This document shows, piece after piece, positions 5,855 to 62,718 of a DNA stretch of 64,000 nt (the stretch's first letter is position 1; the number at the start of each line of letters is the position of its first letter). Under the pieces are notes generated by a model, which saw only the letters and a program-made list of their open reading frames with translations, searched no databases and had not been told where the DNA came from. The position numbers and the translations under genes are program-made. Origin of the DNA: Acinetobacter phage Acj61. The stretch lies in sequence record GU911519.1; one strand, given 5' to 3'.

Positions 5855-6784
5855 ATGTTTACAGAACCAAAAAATCCACAACAGCTAAAGGACTATATCC
5901 TTGAACGACTTGGTGCTCCGATTATCAATATCGAAGTCACAGAATCTCAAGTATATCAATGCATACAACGTTCTCTAGAGCTGTTTGGTGAATATCACTA
6001 TAATGGACTCAACCGAACTTTCAAAGTAATCTACATTGGCGAAGATGAAAAATGGAAAGACGGCGTGTTCGACCTTCAAGACGACAATATTTTTGCTGTT
6101 ACAAAGATTCTTCGTTCAAACACGTCTATGACAAGTTTAATGACAATGGATGGTTCAGCAACTTATCCATGGGCTCAAGACTTTATTTTAGGCATGACTG
6201 GATTCAATGGCGGTAACTCATGTTCTCGTACATTTGGTCCTAACATGTTTGGTGGCGAGCTTGGTTATTTCACAATGATCATGCAGTACTGGAATTTGAT
6301 GCAGAAGATGTTCAATCCAGAGCCTGACTATTGGTACAATGACACAACAGGTCAATTGAAAATCATTGGCAATTTCAAGAAAAATGATTTCTTAGTTCTT
6401 GAAGTATGGACTAAAGCATTTGTTGATACCGAACGTTCAGTTGGAGCTTATGCTGGCTATGGCTATGCTGGCTCACAACAAACGAATAATTGGGGAGTTT
6501 CAGACATTTATGATAATGCTGATCGTCAACAAACCGGTTATTACGCAGGTGAGGAATCAAGTTTGAAACATGGAGCGTTCAATAATCGCTGGGTTAAAGA
6601 CTATGCAACATGTCTAGTTAAGTACACGAATGGCCAAATTCTTGCCAAGCATCAAGGCATGGCATTACCAGGCGGTACAACAGTCGATGGAGTTCGATTG
6701 ATTGATGAGGCTGAACGAGAAATGCTTCGATTACGAGAAGAGCTCGATTCATTGTCACCAGGCTGCCCAATCTTAATAGGATAA
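5855..6784 (+). CDS. gp13: neck protein gp13
   Basis: 309 aa, identical in length to T4 gp13. Synteny is wac-13-14. Confidence 0.8.
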   Translation: MFTEPKNPQQLKDYILERLGAPIINIEVTESQVYQCIQRSLELFGEYHYNGLNRTFKVIYIGEDEKWKDGVFDLQDDNIFAVTKILRSNTSMTSLMTMDGSATYPWAQDFILGMTGFNGGNSCSRTFGPNMFGGELGYFTMIMQYWNLMQKMFNPEPDYWYNDTTGQLKIIGNFKKNDFLVLEVWTKAFVDTERSVGAYAGYGYAGSQQTNNWGVSDIYDNADRQQTGYYAGEESSLKHGAFNNRWVKDYATCLVKYTNGQILAKHQGMALPGGTTVDGVRLIDEAEREMLRLREELDSLSPGCPILIG

Positions 6785-6787
6785 ATT

Positions 6788-7555
6788 ATGAACACATACG
6801 ATAGTTCACTGTTTGCTAAACTCGGAAACGACACAGGCTACAATCAAACTAATGTTCACAACATCCTCAATCCATACGTAAACTTCCATAAATTTGAAAA
6901 CACTCAAACTCTTCAAGACGCATTGGTTGCAGAATCAGTGCAGATGAGAGGAGTTGAGTGTTACTATTTGCCTCGTGAATTTGCTAATCTTGATTTGCTG
7001 TTCGGTGAAGACCCACAATCAAAATTCAACAAAGCATGGAAATTTGCAGCATATCTACAGTCATTCGAAAATTATAGTGGCTCAAATACTTTCTTTGGAA
7101 AGTTTGGTATGCAGGTCAATGATGAAGTAACATTAGCTATCAATCCAAACTTGTTCAAACACCAATGTAATGGCAAAGAGCCTATCGAAGGTGATTTGAT
7201 CTATTTCGCAATGGACAATTCATTGTTTGAAATCACTTGGGTTGAGCCTTACGATCCATTCTACCAAGTCGGTAAGAACGCAATTCGACGTATAACAGCA
7301 CAAAAATTCATCTACTCAGGTGAAGAGATCAAACCAGAGCTGCAACGAAATGAAGGAATCCACATCCCGGAATTTGATGAGCTTGAACTCAATCCAATCC
7401 ATAATCTCAATGGACGCGCTGACATTTACGAAGACGAGTTCCAAGAATCAAAATTGCTTCAAAAAGAATCGAGTGAATTTGTTCAGCCACATGTTGTCAT
7501 CAACAACAGAGGAACTGAAGCAACTCCATTTGACGATGACTTTATGAGCATGTAA
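6788..7555 (+). CDS. gp14: neck protein gp14
   Basis: 255 aa, versus 256 aa for T4 gp14. It is supported by synteny. Confidence 0.8.
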
Positions 7556-8433: not shown

Positions 8434-10750
<2,317 letters not shown>

Positions 10751-24316: not shown

Positions 24317-24715
24317 TCAAGCTAAGCCATTGCTAAGCTGTAACTTCAATGCTTCTAACGTGTCCGGGTTATCCAAAATGCTAAACCGTACGTCGACGAT
24401 AATTGTGTTAAGGTCATATTGTGGAATGACATTGACACCTAATCGCACGATTCGAGGCTCGTATGTTCTAACTGCAGCAGTGATACTCTTTTCAAGCGTG
24501 TTTGCTGTTAGAGGAGACAAGTTCTCAAATAATTGATCTGACATATCACAACCAAATTCTGGGTCAAAAGGTTTTGAACCTTTTCGTGTTGTGATAATCC
24601 CTAAAAGAGAGTTCTTGACAGCACGTGTGCCAACACTCTTTGCGACATCTCGGTTCCATGCCATTGACATTTCAGGCGAGATGTCTGTGTACATCTGATT
24701 GATTGATACGCTCAT
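24317..24715 (-). CDS. gp25: baseplate wedge protein gp25
   Basis: 132 aa, identical in length to T4 gp25. It lies adjacent to gp26 and is divergent from gp51, as in T4. Confidence 0.85.
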   Translation of the reverse strand: MSVSINQMYTDISPEMSMAWNRDVAKSVGTRAVKNSLLGIITTRKGSKPFDPEFGCDMSDQLFENLSPLTANTLEKSITAAVRTYEPRIVRLGVNVIPQYDLNTIIVDVRFSILDNPDTLEALKLQLSNGLA

Positions 24716-25359
24716 TATAAAATCCGAATGAATTCGCTAAAACCTTCAATGACGTGTACATGCTTCTTGCCGCATTTAGGACAAGTAATTGGCACCGCCA
24801 ACTGCACCTTTGGTGCTAATAAGAATTTTTTGATAGAATTAATATCATCAGGCGTAATAGCTTTGTGAATGTCATCGAGCTCGGATTCAGTCAATTCATC
24901 AACTGGAATTCGATCGTCGCCTACGTACGCAGCTTCAATTGCTTTAACGAGCATAAGAGGCACGTTGTCATCATCAAACAGTTCTGGCCAGTTGAATGAC
25001 AATTTAAAGTTCGGGAACGCATATAAATTTTCTGTGCTCTCGCCTTTGAAGTCAATACCTGCATGTGATAGATCGAGTTTGACTTGGAACTCGTGCTTAC
25101 ATTCACAGACATAATCCTGAAGAATTTCGTCTTGGTTGATGCTTCGTCCAATAAGATTAACGAGCAATAATTCTGCATCGTGTTTGGAAAGCTTAGAAGC
25201 ATTTGTGTATTTCTCGATAACTTCTCGAGACCATTTTTTGATCAAGTCTGAATTATCAGAGCCTCGTGACAGCAGCAATTTCACATAGTCTTCTAACGTG
25301 ATTGTTGTACACTCGACAGTTTGATCACTAAGTTTAACGCTAAATTTTGTTTCGTACAT
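24715..25359 (-). CDS. gp26: baseplate hub subunit gp26
   Basis: 214 aa from the ATG at 25359, versus 208 aa for T4 gp26. The track start at 25371 is a GTG. A late promoter on the minus strand lies at 25381-25388. Confidence 0.7.
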   Translation of the reverse strand: MYETKFSVKLSDQTVECTTITLEDYVKLLLSRGSDNSDLIKKWSREVIEKYTNASKLSKHDAELLLVNLIGRSINQDEILQDYVCECKHEFQVKLDLSHAGIDFKGESTENLYAFPNFKLSFNWPELFDDDNVPLMLVKAIEAAYVGDDRIPVDELTESELDDIHKAITPDDINSIKKFLLAPKVQLAVPITCPKCGKKHVHVIEGFSEFIRIL

Positions 25360-25380
25360 AATAGTCACCACTTTATTGAG

Positions 25381-25412: not shown

Positions 25413-26171
25413 ATGGCTAATATTATTCGATGCAAACTACCTGATGGCATTCATCGTTTCAAACCATTCACAGTGGCTGATTATCGAGATTTCTTGTTAG
25501 TGCGCAACGACATGCTTTCTAAAGAGATCAAAGAGCAAAAAGAACTTGTCAATGAACTGGCTGCTGATTATTTCAGTGAGTACCCAGAAACTTGGCAGCA
25601 ATACATTTTCTTGAATGTGTTCACAGGCTCGATCGGCAAAACGAAAATTCCAATTGTGTATGATTGTCCTAAATGTGGCAAAACACATAAGAGAATCTTC
25701 AATCTCGAGCAAGAACCACTAAGTGACCCAATACTTGAAATCAATGAAAGCACATCAGTACATTTCAAATTCCCTGAAGTCAATTCTGAAAACTTGCAAG
25801 AGTTAGTACTTCAAAATATCAAAGGCGTTACTCATGACGAAAAATTCTATGAGTGGTCTTCTCTTGATGAGCAAACAAAAGAGAATATTATTGATAGCAT
25901 TGATTTTGAATCGTTCGAGAAATTGATCAAGAATTTGAAGCCTATTCACTTTCAACTTAAATTGAAATGCTGTGGTAATGAGTCAAAAATTGTGTATGAT
26001 GACTTGCATTCAGTTTTCAATTTGCTAATTAATCCAGATGAAGTCTTTTCATTCTACGAGATCAATCACATTCTGATCAAGAACAAGTATGATCAACAAG
26101 CAGTGATGAACATGATTCCGATTGAACGAAGTATGGCTCTATCACTTATTGAAAGGGACAATAAAAAATGA
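25413..26171 (+). CDS. gp51: baseplate hub assembly catalyst gp51
   Basis: 252 aa, versus 249 aa for T4 gp51. An ATGA overlap links it to gp27. Confidence 0.75.
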   Translation: MANIIRCKLPDGIHRFKPFTVADYRDFLLVRNDMLSKEIKEQKELVNELAADYFSEYPETWQQYIFLNVFTGSIGKTKIPIVYDCPKCGKTHKRIFNLEQEPLSDPILEINESTSVHFKFPEVNSENLQELVLQNIKGVTHDEKFYEWSSLDEQTKENIIDSIDFESFEKLIKNLKPIHFQLKLKCCGNESKIVYDDLHSVFNLLINPDEVFSFYEINHILIKNKYDQQAVMNMIPIERSMALSLIERDNKK

Positions 26172-27754
26172 CAACTATGCAGAAGCCTGGGTATCCTAAC
26201 GTCAGTATCAAATTATACGAAAGTTACGATGCTTGGAAAGAAAATCGATTTGTTGAACTTGGCGCTACGTTCACAACACTCACTATTCGTGATGGGCTGT
26301 TCGGGCGAAATGAAGGCATGTTGCAATTCTATGACAATAAGAACATTCATACAAAAATGGATGGCGAACAGATTATTCAAATCTCATTGTCAAATGCTAA
26401 CACAAATGATGTCTTCAACCGAATTTATGGCATCAAACACTTTGCGACATCAGTCGATGAAAAAGGTGACAACATTATCGGTGTCGACTTAGCTCCATTG
26501 CACATTGTTGAACACTTGAAATTTTCTCGTGCGTTCTTTGCCAACGCTACTGAATCGATTCAAGAAATGATTCGAGTCATCTACGCTAAACGAGCCGAGA
26601 TTGCTCCTAAAGTTGAAGGAATCAACGTCTACGTACCTAAAGTTGCTTGGGTCAATGATATCGAAATGTACATGGACTATGTACGTGAGATCGGCATGGC
26701 TGTTGAATCAGAGACATTCGTATTCGCATGGGAAGACATGATCGGAATTCACTTACAGGACTACAAACAAATCAGCGAACAAGAAGCTCGTAAAATGGTT
26801 GTAGGTGACATCAATCAAATTGGTACATTCGTCCAGTCAATGGATATTGGACTTGCATACGAGTTTGTATGGCTTTCAAAAGCTAATAGATACGATCGTA
26901 ATCCAATGGAGAACGTGACGATTTATTCTCACTCATTCAATGACAAAGAAATCCAACGTGTGACACAAGACGAAGGTGCTAACTCGATTTATGTAACTCG
27001 TTCTGGCGGATATTCTGACATGACATATCGTAATGGATATGAAGAAGCTATTCGATTGCTTACAATGGCTCAATATGATGGTTATGCTCAGTGCAAAACT
27101 GTCGGTGATTTCACAATTCGTCCTGGCATGAAAATCAATTTTGGTGATCAGAAAAATCAGTTCAAGACTGATTTCTACGTCGATGAAGTCATTCATGAAA
27201 TTTCTAACAACTCATCTGTAACGAACATGTATATGTTCACTAACGGTAAGGCATTAAAACCTGTGGAAATCGAAAAAATCAAAAATGAAATTCCTACTTT
27301 GGAAACACCGAGCGAATCTGTTCAGCCTGAACCATCTGGCGACATTAAAGGTTCTGACTGGGACCTTGATAAAATGGCAACAGTTGTTACAAAGAATGCT
27401 CAAGGACGTAGTTCGACTGGTGATTGTGCATTATATGTTCGTAAAGCATTACAAGCATCTCAAATCAAACAGTTCTTTGCTGGTGGACTTGGACACGCTA
27501 ACCAAATGCCAACTCAACTTATTCGAATGAACTGGGTTGCGGTAGGCCAAAATGTAACCTCATGGAAGAAAGGCGACATCGTTGTTTTCCAACGAACAAA
27601 TACACGACTTGGACAAAAATATGGTCATGTTGCTATTTTCAACGGCTCACAGTGGGTATCAGATTTCATTCAACCAAGCGTCCAACCAAATCTAAAAGAT
27701 AATTTAACGTACACGCTGTACAGAGCTCGTTACGGCTACACTAAAGGTGCATAA
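26168..27754 (+). CDS. gp27: baseplate hub protein gp27 fused to a C-terminal CHAP/NlpC-P60-like cysteine peptidase domain
   Basis: 528 aa, versus 391 aa for T4 gp27. The N-terminus MTTMQKPGYPNVSIKLYESYDAWKENRFVELGATF is gp27-like. Residues approximately 395-528 (STGDCALYVRKAL...YGHVAIFNG) carry the Cys...His signature of CHAP-type amidases/peptidases, after a Pro/Glu-rich linker ETPSESVQPEPSGD. Confidence 0.8.
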   Translation: MTTMQKPGYPNVSIKLYESYDAWKENRFVELGATFTTLTIRDGLFGRNEGMLQFYDNKNIHTKMDGEQIIQISLSNANTNDVFNRIYGIKHFATSVDEKGDNIIGVDLAPLHIVEHLKFSRAFFANATESIQEMIRVIYAKRAEIAPKVEGINVYVPKVAWVNDIEMYMDYVREIGMAVESETFVFAWEDMIGIHLQDYKQISEQEARKMVVGDINQIGTFVQSMDIGLAYEFVWLSKANRYDRNPMENVTIYSHSFNDKEIQRVTQDEGANSIYVTRSGGYSDMTYRNGYEEAIRLLTMAQYDGYAQCKTVGDFTIRPGMKINFGDQKNQFKTDFYVDEVIHEISNNSSVTNMYMFTNGKALKPVEIEKIKNEIPTLETPSESVQPEPSGDIKGSDWDLDKMATVVTKNAQGRSSTGDCALYVRKALQASQIKQFFAGGLGHANQMPTQLIRMNWVAVGQNVTSWKKGDIVVFQRTNTRLGQKYGHVAIFNGSQWVSDFIQPSVQPNLKDNLTYTLYRARYGYTKGA

Positions 27755-28312
27755 ATGAACAAAATCAATTTAGACATTCGTCCAGTATTTCGTATGCTTT
27801 CAATTAATGGCAAAGACATCAAGATTCCTCGTCTCGGTTTAAAGCACCACGCAATTTTAAAGGACCCTAATGATCACGAGGACGCTATGAAAAAATTGAT
27901 GGCGTCTATCCATCCTAATTTATCTGCTGCAGAACGTGATTTGGTATCACTTCATTTGTTGGCATATAATGAACGTCTGAAACACTCAGTGGTCATTGAT
28001 GGCAATACATATACGGTGGATGATGTAATTATCAATCAAAAACTCAGATTCAATATAGGTGAAACTGAGTTCAAGTTCAAAACACCGAAACTTGAGAACT
28101 TGAATGCTACAATCCCGGAATTGTTACGTTCAAGTTGTGTGAGTGTTAAAGATGGTAATGGAAATCCACAGGAAATTCCAGACTTCTTACAAATGCCTGC
28201 ATATACATACAAATGGGCTGATGACATCTGTTCAACTATTGAACTTCGTACTTCTACAGGTAGTGTCAAAGGTCTTTATAAATTAATGGAGCTATTCGAT
28301 GGCGCAGCCTAA
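27755..28312 (+). CDS. gp28: baseplate hub distal subunit gp28
   Basis: 185 aa, versus 177 aa for T4 gp28. It is supported by synteny. Confidence 0.75.
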   Translation: MNKINLDIRPVFRMLSINGKDIKIPRLGLKHHAILKDPNDHEDAMKKLMASIHPNLSAAERDLVSLHLLAYNERLKHSVVIDGNTYTVDDVIINQKLRFNIGETEFKFKTPKLENLNATIPELLRSSCVSVKDGNGNPQEIPDFLQMPAYTYKWADDICSTIELRTSTGSVKGLYKLMELFDGAA

Positions 28313-30092
28313 TCCACCAAAATCAGAACTTTTAGGAGTCAGTGGAGCAAATGATGAAGCAGTTACACGTAACGTACCAGCGCCTTTGAAGCGTCCGGCT
28401 GCTCAAACATCGTTTCGAAAAACACCAGCTCCTGATATGAAGGCAGCAAATGATGCATTAGATGATATTCGTGATCAAGTCTCTGATAAAGCTGACGATC
28501 CAATCGATACTCTTGATGCATCAAAACAGTCATTGGCATCTATTGACAATAAGATGTCACAACAAATCTCTGATAATTTAGCAAGTTCGATTGTTCAACG
28601 CCGATATGAAGGTACAATGATTGGCGAGACACAGAATATTTCTGCTAAGTTATCTTTGCTGTTAGGTAAATTGACCGAGATGCATGTTGATGCACAAGTC
28701 GAAGCAGCACAAAAGGATAACATCAAGTCTGAGCCAACTACATCTGAAGTGATTGGAGACTTGATCAAAAAGGAACAGCCAGAGCAAAAACCTGAAATTG
28801 CTGAAAAAATTCTCCCAACAGAAGAAAAGCCATCAACTAAATTACTTGATGAAAATGCTGGTAAGTCCGGCAAAGAGTTAGTTGGTAAAGCAAATCCAAT
28901 TGTGATGGGACTTGATAAAGTTGGTGGTCTATTAAAGACTGGCTTCAAATCAAGTATCGGAGTCATGGACAAAATTTCTGGTATGTTGTTCAAGTTCACA
29001 GCTACCCAAGCAATCAATGCAGCTAAAGTCGCAGCAGCGATCTTTGCAATTATTCTTGCTATCGATTTGATCAAAATTTACTGGTCAGTCTGGGGCGAGA
29101 AAATTATGGCTAAGTTGTCTGAATGGGCTGAAATTTTCAAAGGTTGGTGGGATACATTTACCGACTGGGGCTCTCAATTTTCTGACTTCAAGACAGCATT
29201 TGAAGGTATGGGTGCTAATTTGATGGAAATCAAAAATGCTTGGGTATCAGGAGATTTTCCTGCTCTGGCTAAAGCACTTGGTAATGCAATCATTGATATG
29301 GGCAAGACAATTTCGGGTATCATTGGCCGAACTCTGGCATCGCTTTTTGGTCCTCTGTTGCGAAAATTAGGCTTTGGAGAAACTGCTGATAATCTCGAAG
29401 CTGCTGGTCTGCGTCATTATCAAAATATGACTGACAACCGATTGAGTCCAGAGAACCAACGAAAACTTGCTGAAAATCAGGTCAAGCAAGAAGCTAAAGA
29501 TGGCAAAACAGCTACTGAACGTGGAATGACTGATTTCTTGCCTAACACATGGCGTAACAAACTTGGATTTATTTCCGATAACGAATTGAGTCAAATCAAT
29601 GCAGAGAAGAAAGATCAAAGTGCTCGTTCGAATTTATCACAAGAGCAAAAAGTTGATTCTGTTGCAGCTACAAATGAAGCTCGAGAAGCAATTGCCCGAT
29701 ATAAGAAATTTGCAGATGCAGCTAACCCTGATAATGCCGGAGATATGGCCAAAGTTGATAAATACAAGAAAGAAGCCGCACAATACTTGAGCAATAAAGC
29801 TCTGGATTTGACACCTTCAATCAAGTCTGAACTTCAAACGCAATACAACGCGATTAAAGTCAAGTCTAAAAAGGACGATGTCAAACCAGAAACTTCAGCA
29901 GCGAGTAAAGACACTCAAACCGTCAACTCGATCAAAACTGCCGAAGCAGCTAAAGCTAATCAGCAAACACAACAAACTAACGTCGCAAACGTTCAGAATA
30001 ATGTTGTCAAGAATAGCAAAACTGTTCATGTTCAGGCTCCAACAACTAGTACACGAGCTCCAGGTGTCCATAAGGCTACCGGAGTCAACTAA
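28299..30092 (+). CDS. gp29: baseplate hub / tail length determinator (tape measure) gp29
   Basis: 597 aa, versus 590 aa for T4 gp29. It is helical and Ala/Lys-rich with a hydrophobic central segment. Confidence 0.8.
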   Translation: MAQPNPPKSELLGVSGANDEAVTRNVPAPLKRPAAQTSFRKTPAPDMKAANDALDDIRDQVSDKADDPIDTLDASKQSLASIDNKMSQQISDNLASSIVQRRYEGTMIGETQNISAKLSLLLGKLTEMHVDAQVEAAQKDNIKSEPTTSEVIGDLIKKEQPEQKPEIAEKILPTEEKPSTKLLDENAGKSGKELVGKANPIVMGLDKVGGLLKTGFKSSIGVMDKISGMLFKFTATQAINAAKVAAAIFAIILAIDLIKIYWSVWGEKIMAKLSEWAEIFKGWWDTFTDWGSQFSDFKTAFEGMGANLMEIKNAWVSGDFPALAKALGNAIIDMGKTISGIIGRTLASLFGPLLRKLGFGETADNLEAAGLRHYQNMTDNRLSPENQRKLAENQVKQEAKDGKTATERGMTDFLPNTWRNKLGFISDNELSQINAEKKDQSARSNLSQEQKVDSVAATNEAREAIARYKKFADAANPDNAGDMAKVDKYKKEAAQYLSNKALDLTPSIKSELQTQYNAIKVKSKKDDVKPETSAASKDTQTVNSIKTAEAAKANQQTQQTNVANVQNNVVKNSKTVHVQAPTTSTRAPGVHKATGVN

Positions 30093-61936: not shown

Positions 61937-61963
61937 ACGGGGCTCAATTGAGTCCCGTTTTTC
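61937..61963 (+). terminator. rho-independent terminator ACGGGGCTCA at TGAGTCCCGT + TTTTT
   Basis: The stem has 10 bp and 2 unpaired nucleotides in the loop and is followed by a T-run. Confidence 0.7.
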
Positions 61964-61964
61964 G

Positions 61965-61972
61965 TATAAATA
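61965..61972 (+). promoter_or_regulatory. late promoter TATAAATA for the holin t
   Basis: An exact octamer lies immediately after the terminator. Confidence 0.55.
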
Positions 61973-62037
61973 TTATCATAAGTCATAAGACTGTAACTAC
62001 CAAGTTAATCCTATCAACGCTACAAAAGTATATAACG

Positions 62038-62718
62038 ATGAGCACTGATAATAACCAAACACCAGAACAGAAAAACACAGGGATTCCAGTCTTCGACTTT
62101 ATCTTCGGACTCCTTGATCGTATTTTCAAAGACAACGCTACTGGTAAAATTTTAGCGTCACGTGTCGTCGTTCTAATTGTTTTATTCGCAATGGGTATCA
62201 TTTGGACCAAAGGTGACCAATATTTGGCACTGTATAAAGAGTCGAGATACGAGACCTACGCAGCTATAATGCAAAAAGATAAAGACGCACGATTCGAAAC
62301 TGTAGCATTAGAACAACTACAAATTGTTCACGTTTCAAGCGGAGCAGACTTTTCAGCTGTGTACTCTTTCCGCCCAAAGAACTTTAACTATTTTGTAGAT
62401 TTGATCGCGTATGAAGGACAACTACCCGCATCTGTTGACCCGAAGAACCTAGGCGGGTTCCCTATTGATAAGACTTCAAACGAATATAGTAAACATTTAT
62501 CTGGCTCTTCTTTCAGTAGTGAAAATGAGTTCAAATATTTGCCGACTACTGATCATGAAGTTGGAGTGAAGTACATGTACTCATGCCCGTATTTCAACAT
62601 GGACAATGTCTATTCAGGAACAGTCGCAATGTACTGGTTTTCGAAGCCAGTACATTCTGAAGAAAAATTAAGTGCGATCTGTGGTCAAGCGGTGAGGGCG
62701 TTAGGAAGAGCTCGTTAA
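62038..62718 (+). CDS. t: holin T
   Basis: 226 aa from the ATG at 62038, versus 218 aa for T4 T. FGLLDRIFKDNATGKILASRVVVLIVLFAMGIIW...YKESRYETY...RFETVALEQLQIVHVSSGADFSAVYSFRPKN...YMYSCPYFNMDNVYSGT aligns with T4 holin nearly residue by residue. The track N-terminal extension is rejected. Confidence 0.95.
   Translation: MSTDNNQTPEQKNTGIPVFDFIFGLLDRIFKDNATGKILASRVVVLIVLFAMGIIWTKGDQYLALYKESRYETYAAIMQKDKDARFETVALEQLQIVHVSSGADFSAVYSFRPKNFNYFVDLIAYEGQLPASVDPKNLGGFPIDKTSNEYSKHLSGSSFSSENEFKYLPTTDHEVGVKYMYSCPYFNMDNVYSGTVAMYWFSKPVHSEEKLSAICGQAVRALGRAR

Follow-up and report, generated by a model that had tools for sequence, protein, structure and literature searches.

The window analysed here is a 64,000-nucleotide stretch of the genome of Acinetobacter phage Acj61 (GU911519.1), and our subject is its gene 27, which encodes the baseplate hub protein gp27 with a predicted enzyme domain at the C-terminus (Table 1). 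The reading frame is open throughout and specifies 528 amino acids followed by a stop codon. Both gp27 families in Pfam are matched over their full length, Phage-tail_1 with 279 bits (cut-off 27) and Phage-tail_2 with 240 bits (cut-off 25), and the PHROG family 'baseplate hub' matches the 528-residue protein at E 3e-187. Residues 1-385 of T4 gp27 (PDB 1K28_D, 391 amino acids) align to residues 1-384 of the Acj61 protein at E 2.4e-157, and therefore the extension begins where T4 gp27 ends. This agrees with an earlier reading of the same DNA (the original prediction), which had described a 528-residue gp27 homologue bearing a domain that T4 gp27 lacks.

Table 1. Gene 27 of phage Acj61, its parts and its neighbours (positions are those of the window)
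Feature	Position	Strand	Evidence or remark
Gene 27, hub protein with C-terminal predicted enzyme domain	26168..27754	+	Pfam, PHROG, T4 gp27 alignment
gp27 hub domain 1, residues 5-199	26180..26764	+	Pfam Phage-tail_1, E 2.1e-83, full-length profile match
gp27 hub domain 2, residues 204-374	26777..27289	+	Pfam Phage-tail_2, E 2.5e-71
Linker, residues 376-397, includes ETPSESVQPEPSGD	27293..27358	+	Predicted disordered, fast-evolving
Tae3-family papain-like cysteine peptidase domain, residues 398-528, predicted peptidoglycan cross-link endopeptidase	27359..27751	+	
Codon of predicted nucleophile Cys420	27425..27427	+	Aligns to Tae3 Cys23; invariant in 34/34 clusters
Codon of predicted general base His487	27626..27628	+	Aligns to Tae3 His81; invariant in 34/34 clusters
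Codons of Ser498-Asp499, candidate third triad residue	27659..27664	+	Opposite Tae3 Ser92/Asp93 by alignment numbering; invariant in 34/34 clusters
Gene 51, baseplate hub assembly catalyst	25413..26171	+	Pfam, PHROG; context
Gene 28, distal hub subunit	27755..28312	+	Phage_hub_GP28, E 1e-31; context
Gene 29, tape measure / hub subunit	28299..30092	+	Pfam, PHROG; context
Gene 25, baseplate, divergent transcription	24317-24715	-	Pfam, PHROG; context (genes 25/26 are wedge and hub subunits)
Gene 26, baseplate, divergent transcription	24715-25371	-	Pfam, PHROG; context (genes 25/26 are wedge and hub subunits)

The isolated domain matches the solved structure of Tae3 (PDB 4HZ9/4HZB) at E 2.6e-7, and a profile built from 50 homologue sequences matches the same entries at E 2e-29. 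For the Pfam CHAP family (PF05257) the score is 26.9 bits with the whole protein as query and 29.7 bits with the domain by itself, marginally above the gathering cut-off of 26, and the gp27 of phage Acj9 falls below that cut-off with 24.3 bits. We judged the CHAP match not to be due to chance, given this above-cut-off score together with the matches to the Tae3 structure. The NlpC/P60 family (PF00877) reached 14.8 bits on gp27, under its cut-off of 23, and Tae4 (PF14113) remained under its gathering cut-off of 27; both assignments were rejected, since the scores lie below the cut-offs and the corresponding structures are more distant than that of Tae3. The fold is papain-like, of the NlpC/P60 type, with Tae3 nearest in both sequence and structure comparison. 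Judged by these sequence comparisons, the C-terminal 130 or so residues are a papain-like cysteine peptidase domain of the NlpC/P60-CHAP superfamily, and their family is Tae3 rather than canonical CHAP or the NlpC/P60 of PF00877, which shares the superfamily by fold only. The original prediction, which had proposed a CHAP / NlpC-P60 type of hydrolase and had named these two Pfam profiles, was thus right as to the superfamily and not as to the family; of the two profiles only CHAP is matched above its cut-off, by a small margin. Two outcomes that it had named as refuting it, that no cysteine-peptidase family would be matched or that the domain would prove to be a non-catalytic beta-sandwich, did not materialize.

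The model of the domain alone was predicted with a pLDDT (predicted local distance difference test) of 71.6, and that of the full-length gp27 monomer with 86.2; in the latter the values run from 82 to 92 across the domain and fall below 50 in linker residues 375-386. Alignment to Tae3 places C420 opposite C23, H487 opposite H81 and, by alignment numbering, S498 opposite S92. Cys23 and His81 are catalytic in Tae3 of Ralstonia pickettii (4HZ9), a type VI secretion amidase effector (PMC11796386), for which a Cys-His-Ser triad has been described (PMC10318531). The original prediction had singled out the same Cys and His from three strings, all of which are present: STGDCALYVRKAL (residues 416-428) includes C420, YGHVAIFNGSQ (residues 485-495) includes H487, and ETPSESVQPEPSGD in the linker occupies residues 379-392, or nucleotides 27302-27343, about 18 nucleotides upstream of the interval 27320-27360 in which it had been placed. 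The domain lies in frame with the rest of gp27, and we found no conserved internal start from which it could be made: the nearest methionine, residue 403, is a leucine in relatives, and separate expression of the domain was rejected on these grounds. A homologue search with the domain returned around 170 standalone proteins of roughly 150 amino acids (35-43% identity), most of which, among those aligned, have an N-terminal hydrophobic segment; the gene of one of them (P0066), the single case whose context was read, lies in chromosomal surroundings of Bacteroidales type.

Search with full-length gp27 yielded 34 cluster representatives of 518-534 amino acids and 53-99% identity, every one of which carries the extension, and the other T4-like gp27 proteins listed measure 343-406 amino acids, with the exception of three longer variants described below. 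Cys420, His487, Ser498 and Asp499 are invariant in all 34 clusters, down to 53% overall identity. The domain is conserved at least as well as the hub (83% versus 77%, for example), and identity in the linker drops to 5-10% while that of hub and domain stays above 50%. In sequence and in the structural model alike, a conserved domain behind a variable, disordered linker is the pattern that would be expected for a catalytic domain on a flexible tether. When a neighbour-joining tree was built from the hub region alone (midpoint-rooted, with no bootstrap support), the extension-bearing proteins, 38 out of 38, fell into one clade. This suggests that the extension was acquired once. Recent horizontal acquisition was considered on the basis of base composition, and no signal was seen in the guanine-plus-cytosine content: the domain has 41.5%, against 38.8% for the hub and 39.7% for the window.

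The extension is common to a whole clade of deposited genomes, contrary to the rarity that the original prediction had implied. A tblastn search with the domain against 50,697 phage records matched 76, of which 70 are T4-like Acinetobacter phage records (57-76% identity), namely 69 named Acinetobacter phages and OZ038340.1, labelled Tegunavirus. The domain-bearing phages include Acj9, Ac42, 133, ZZ1, KARL-1, AM101, Lazarus and the AB-Navy set, and in the records listed the matches fall in the gene annotated "baseplate hub". A public read-set assembly also contains a gp27 99% identical to that of Acj61 (P0121). In GenBank entries of 2010 the protein of Acj9, 133 and Ac42 is annotated as "fused to (conserved) Acinetobacter hypothetical protein", and the fusion as such is thus already on record, in about 70 deposited entries. 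In the openly accessible literature, including the 2010 review of T4 genomes and recent papers on Acinetobacter T4-like phages, we found no paper that names the domain, describes the fusion or tests its activity. An origin in an Acinetobacter chromosome, as the 2010 notes imply, was not borne out by a genome scan, which gave no chromosomal match; this is a weak negative, as the scan was pattern-limited. It returned only a mis-binned phage contig and homologues of 31-39% identity, linked to type VI secretion systems (T6SS), in other genera.

Some database labels around this family call for comment. The mis-binned contig (L009, CAVJPU010000002.1, 167,038 bp), filed as 'bacterium isolate ... cleanbin', proves to be a T4-like phage genome of complete size that encodes a fused gp27 of 528 residues. 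OZ038340.1, 'Tegunavirus sp. BRC001', encodes a gp5 of the Acinetobacter-phage type, 75% identical to that of Acj9, and is likely mislabelled. One gp27 cluster (P0134) bears the NCBI name "LysM domain protein [Acinetobacter baumannii]", likely a labelling problem, and also contains a UniRef "Baseplate hub subunit" entry. "Acinetobacter" homologues of this kind may be phage sequence in bacterial assemblies.

Relatives of the domain in bacteria (31-39% identity) are encoded in T6SS loci, with Hcp, VgrG or ClpV as neighbours. The Massilia homologue (L014), of 126 residues, has Hcp directly upstream; in Siccibacter (L027:5923-8643) the homologue, flanked by ClpV and VgrG, is the N-terminal domain of a 906-residue effector that also has a glucosaminidase domain; and in Tahibacter (L013) VgrG was confirmed by Pfam, a ClpV-like ORF (open reading frame) being recognized by eye only. 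Other viral contigs encode a Tae3-like module (31-55% identity) inside tape-measure-like proteins and virion proteins of 1,500-2,700 amino acids. In these it occurs together with a Phage_lysozyme2 match in a tape-measure protein (L050; 27.9 bits, slightly short of its cut-off, 28.2), with a VgrG3-like C-terminal domain (L046), with an SLT domain (L058) and with a glucosaminidase match just below cut-off (L048). Judging from the domain content of these four proteins and of the Siccibacter effector, a cross-link cutter and a glycan cutter in one polypeptide are a recurrent pairing. The Acinetobacter T4-like phages split the same pairing over two chains of one complex, the gp5 lysozyme and the Tae3-like domain of gp27. 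A further 381-kb viral contig (IMGVR_UViG_3300011242_000001; L045:7121-12640, plus strand) encodes a protein of 1,839 amino acids whose Tae3-like domain (residues 961-1091) is 55% identical to that of gp27. Since this domain includes the insert GGLG(H/N)ANQMP, which is specific to the gp27 clade, its sequence suggests that the module has been exchanged between unrelated phages of similar hosts.

Within the same gp27 clade, a sister branch bears other cassettes. In two of its proteins (P0217, P0226) the hub is followed by a Tae3-like domain that keeps Cys and His and then by a VanY/M15 peptidase. The third (P0227, 698 amino acids, on an 8.4-kb Logan contig) has the hub, a Tae3-like remnant in which Cys is replaced by Ser and His by Tyr, and a canonical CHAP domain at residues 567-650; this looks like a dead enzyme module replaced by a new one at the same site. 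The phage that encodes P0226 (L066, ENA ERZ27239165) is a sister T4-like phage, with a gp27 of 744 amino acids (L066:8741-10975, plus strand), a gp5 of 506 amino acids with an OB domain and an SLT lytic transglycosylase domain (L066:5147-6667, minus strand), and the beta-helix (Gp5_C) as a separate gene of 237 codons (L066:4437-5150, minus strand). Because this branch bears VanY and CHAP cassettes, the C-terminus of gp27 appears to be a site at which wall hydrolases are attached as modules.

The explanation that we favour, and consider probable, is that Acj61 gp27 is a normal T4-type hub subunit carrying a tethered peptidase of the Tae3 family, which works beside the gp5 lysozyme during injection. 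A disordered linker of about 22 residues would join the peptidase to the natural C-terminus of gp27, and the trimeric state of gp27 would bring three copies into each virion. In Pfam the domain order of VgrG is a gp27-like module and then a gp5-type OB domain; because the OB domain directly follows, we infer that the C-terminus of gp27 is on the distal side of the hub, towards gp5. The three tethered 14-kDa domains would then sit beside the OB and lysozyme domains of gp5 at the tip of the tail tube. Upon sheath contraction the spike would pass through the outer membrane and bring both enzymes into the periplasm, where the gp5 lysozyme would cleave glycan strands and the gp27 domain peptide links, and both cuts together would make an opening through which the tube can pass. 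Tae3 enzymes are DD-endopeptidases that cleave the D-Ala4-mDAP3 cross-link (mDAP, meso-diaminopimelate); by analogy, this is also the most likely target of the gp27 domain, and the bond specificity different from that of lysozyme which the original prediction had foreseen would follow. An immunity protein would not be needed, because assembly occurs in the cytoplasm, away from peptidoglycan, and no immunity-type gene (Tai3) was found after the domain: gp28 comes next, with no intervening ORF.

Several points weigh against this explanation. The Pfam CHAP score is barely above its cut-off, with Tae4 and NlpC_P60 below theirs, and at around 30% identity to Tae3 the bond specificity may differ. 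The third residue of the triad is uncertain, because a sister cassette has Ala at the position of Ser498. Activity and presence in the virion are predictions from sequence for every member of the family, and three 14-kDa domains may or may not fit beside the gp5 lysozyme inside the baseplate, the models made being of monomers. Cleavage during assembly could remove the domain. Its contribution may also be conditional, since T4 and most relatives infect efficiently without one. Finally, the gp5 of Acj61 itself was not seen, and the status of its lysozyme is read from relatives only.

Gene 5 of Acj61 lies upstream of the window, which begins in gp9. In a search for it by way of gp10, the exact gp10 product was not on record, and a 40-mer from the start of the window is absent from IMG/VR. 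The contig with a 99%-identical gp10 (P0241) begins at gp9 and that of an 84% relative in gp6/gp7, and gp5 was recovered from neither. The closest gp10 relative with a readable gp5 (78% gp10 identity) is L068, where gp5 occupies L068:545-2293 on the plus strand; a metagenome scan with this gp5 gave nothing above 49% identity.

Full-length gp5 is present in 60 out of 60 Acinetobacter-clade records listed (100% coverage of Acj9 gp5), and the Acj9 protein has OB, Phage_lysozyme (33.9 bits, cut-off 22.3) and beta-helix domains. For the catalytic motif we compared gp5 with Glu11, Asp20 and Thr26 of T4 lysozyme. The equivalents are canonical in Acj9, AB-Navy97, ZZ1 and L084; in the first three a fused gp27 is encoded in the same genome, and L084 probably encodes one as well (P0124, 79% identical). 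In L068 the lysozyme reads DEMIMTKVYWVDEYPHIGIGHL: the fold and the equivalent of Glu11 are retained, a single residue is missing around Asp20, and Thr26 has given way to His. The original prediction had left it between replacing and supplementing a gp5 lysozyme. Of the two, supplementing is supported, as judged from sequence, as the rule across the clade, because gp5 is full length in the listed records and its catalytic Glu, Asp and Thr are canonical in the four that were checked. Replacement, with the gp27 peptidase as the main or only wall cutter and the Acj61 lysozyme lost or inactive, is an unlikely, minority possibility for the Acj61 lineage. The gp5 that was not recovered, the deletion and the His of L068, and the SLT domain found at the position of the T4-type lysozyme in the sister lineage would all be in keeping with it; against this stand the full-length gp5 of the clade records listed, the canonical motif beside a fused gp27 in three genomes, the fold and Glu11 equivalent that L068 retains, and the fact that the gp5 of the sister lineage still has a glycan-cleaving domain.

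It is also conceivable, and in our view rather improbable, that in the Acj61 lineage the gp27 peptidase sustains injection when the gp5 lysozyme is blocked or weakened, the gp27 C-terminus being the phage counterpart of the site at which evolved VgrG proteins load effectors. The cause might be lysozyme-resistant peptidoglycan, periplasmic lysozyme inhibitors or superinfection exclusion of the Spackle type by a resident T4-like phage. The altered gp5 motif of L068 would then mark the wall-cutting role moving from gp5 to gp27, and the gp27 C-terminus would swap toxin-type modules with T6SS effectors and with virion proteins of other phages.

To return to the favoured explanation, of a peptidase beside a working lysozyme, we weighed it against three further readings of the domain. 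That the module is non-catalytic, either a peptidoglycan-binding anchor or a structural or assembly element of the hub, seems distinctly unlikely. Catalytically dead papain-like domains do exist, P0227 keeps the fold with its Cys and His replaced, and the activity of all members is a prediction; four residues that stay invariant in every cluster are hard to reconcile with such a role, the sole lineage to lose Cys and His has acquired a canonical CHAP domain further downstream, which would be expected if selection acts on catalysis, and a disordered, unconserved linker is more in keeping with an enzyme on a tether than with a fixed structural part.

We regard as very unlikely a role at the end of infection, in which the domain would serve as an auxiliary endolysin acting through the holin lesion, or would act on neighbouring cells. 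The label 'endolysin' on PHROG matches, the homology of the domain to toxins that kill bacteria from the periplasm and the t-type holin encoded in the window fit such a role. It is opposed by the in-frame fusion to an essential structural protein with no conserved internal start, by the residence of the module in tape-measure and giant virion proteins (that is, in entry machinery) in other phages, and by the lack of any free-standing copy among the phage relatives examined. A protease acting on protein, for example in the processing of gp5 to gp5* and gp5C or on a host envelope protein, is the least credible reading: there are many proteases among papain-like folds and T4 gp5 is cleaved during assembly, but the nearest relatives by sequence and fold are all peptidoglycan amidases or endopeptidases, T4 matures its gp5 without such a domain, and the module is repeatedly paired with glycan-cleaving domains.

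In comparison with known systems, the domain shares with Tae3 of Ralstonia pickettii (4HZ9/4HZB) the fold, the Cys-His pair, its spacing and the motifs GxCAxYVRxA ... GHxAI ... W(V/I)SDF. Tae3 is a free toxin exported by a T6SS, with the immunity gene Tai3 adjacent; here the domain is the C-terminal part of a phage structural protein, encoded inside gene 27 at around 30% identity, with no such immunity gene at the locus and, unlike Tae3, with the clade-specific insert FAGGLGHANQMP. Because these features of export and immunity are absent, we take it from its sequence to be a homologous catalytic domain that shares ancestry with Tae3 and not a T6SS effector. A counterpart from the same host genus is Tae17, an Acinetobacter baumannii T6SS effector that consists of a lytic transglycosylase and a Tae3-like amidase (PMC11796386). 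It likewise combines a glycan cleaver and a Tae3-like Cys/His amidase in one delivery unit, but as a single bacterial polypeptide delivered by T6SS; its likeness to the phage domain is one of description.

The T4 gp27-gp5 complex (1K28) offers the same hub protein, gene neighbourhood and principle of a wall hydrolase in the central spike; its only enzyme is the gp5 lysozyme, the 391-residue gp27 having none, whereas the present gp27 has one of a second class, a peptidase as opposed to a glycosidase. Evolved VgrG proteins such as VgrG-3 of Vibrio cholerae are hub/spike proteins homologous to gp27 and gp5 and likewise bear a C-terminal effector domain; there the extension follows the gp5-like beta-helix at the spike tip, and here it follows the gp27 module, gp5 being a separate protein. 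Hub-borne hydrolases are also found in the diffocin Hub-Hydrolase CD1368 (8V3W) and the hub and baseplate CHAP / NlpC-P60 proteins of Staphylococcus phage phi812 (9EUM, 9EUF), but these belong to unrelated hub families and hosts with thick Gram-positive walls, are of another peptidase subfamily and have no accompanying gp5-type lysozyme. The lysins in tape-measure and giant virion proteins contain the same Tae3-like module on a different carrier, and their route is the tube lumen rather than the hub. What sets the present case apart is that a T4-type phage of a Gram-negative host has a second enzyme, from a different class, on its gp27.

The neighbourhood of gene 27 is that of T4. Its start overlaps the stop of gp51 (ATGA), gp28 starts directly after its stop, and the order gp25 (-), gp26 (-), gp51, gp27, gp28, gp29 is the T4 order; gene 27 lies between gene 51 and genes 28/29 likewise in Acj9, 133, Ac42, ZZ1 and AB-Navy97. 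Elsewhere in the window the arrangement is the usual one for T4-like phages: the C-terminal part of gp9 through to gp17, then gp48, gp54, Alt, DNA ligase, gp34-37, holin t and MotA. The divergently transcribed gp26 and gp51 both match T4_baseplate (PF12322), at E 1e-48 and 6e-57 respectively, and from this they appear to be paralogues. The holin t ORF (61948-62718, plus strand) is listed with a TTG start and 256 amino acids; the alignment to the PHROG holin profile does not begin before residue 45, and the true start probably lies further downstream.

Two differences between the window and its relatives were noticed elsewhere. The large terminase region of L068 (L068:18316-21370, compared with 8912-10747 in the window) is split into an ORF of 458 codons, with a weak ROS_MUCR match, and a terminase ORF of 563 codons, with a faint intein match, while gp17 in the window is intact at 611 amino acids; the split may be due to insertion of a mobile element or an intein. 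Between gp13 and gp14 a 99%-identical strain (L067, Logan SRR20680013) has an extra ORF of 209 codons with no Pfam match (L067:7105-7734); its gp14-gp15 spacer is also longer. In the window gp13 and gp14 are adjacent (6784-6788), so that the two near-identical strains differ by an indel.

The T4 cell-puncturing device is the textbook model of how contractile tails cross the Gram-negative envelope, and its sole enzyme is the gp5 lysozyme. Acj61 gp27 is a well-supported case of a hub-borne hydrolase whose sequence was already deposited and for which we found no functional explanation in the literature searched. A clade of T4-like phages appears to bear a second hub enzyme, of a different class and homologous to a T6SS toxin, and among the members of this clade are many phages of Acinetobacter baumannii that have been used in therapy or put forward for it (the AB-Navy set, KARL-1, AM101). 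The cassettes of the sister branch, VanY and CHAP on gp27 and SLT on gp5, show evolutionary turnover at the site. If the domain is active, the puncturing device of these phages would be a two-enzyme drill that acts on both glycan strands and cross-links, and there would be a direct evolutionary link between the effector repertoires of T6SS and the virion enzymes of phages. The 131-residue domain would then be a candidate enzybiotic against Acinetobacter, and the C-terminus of gp27 a natural site for engineered payloads.

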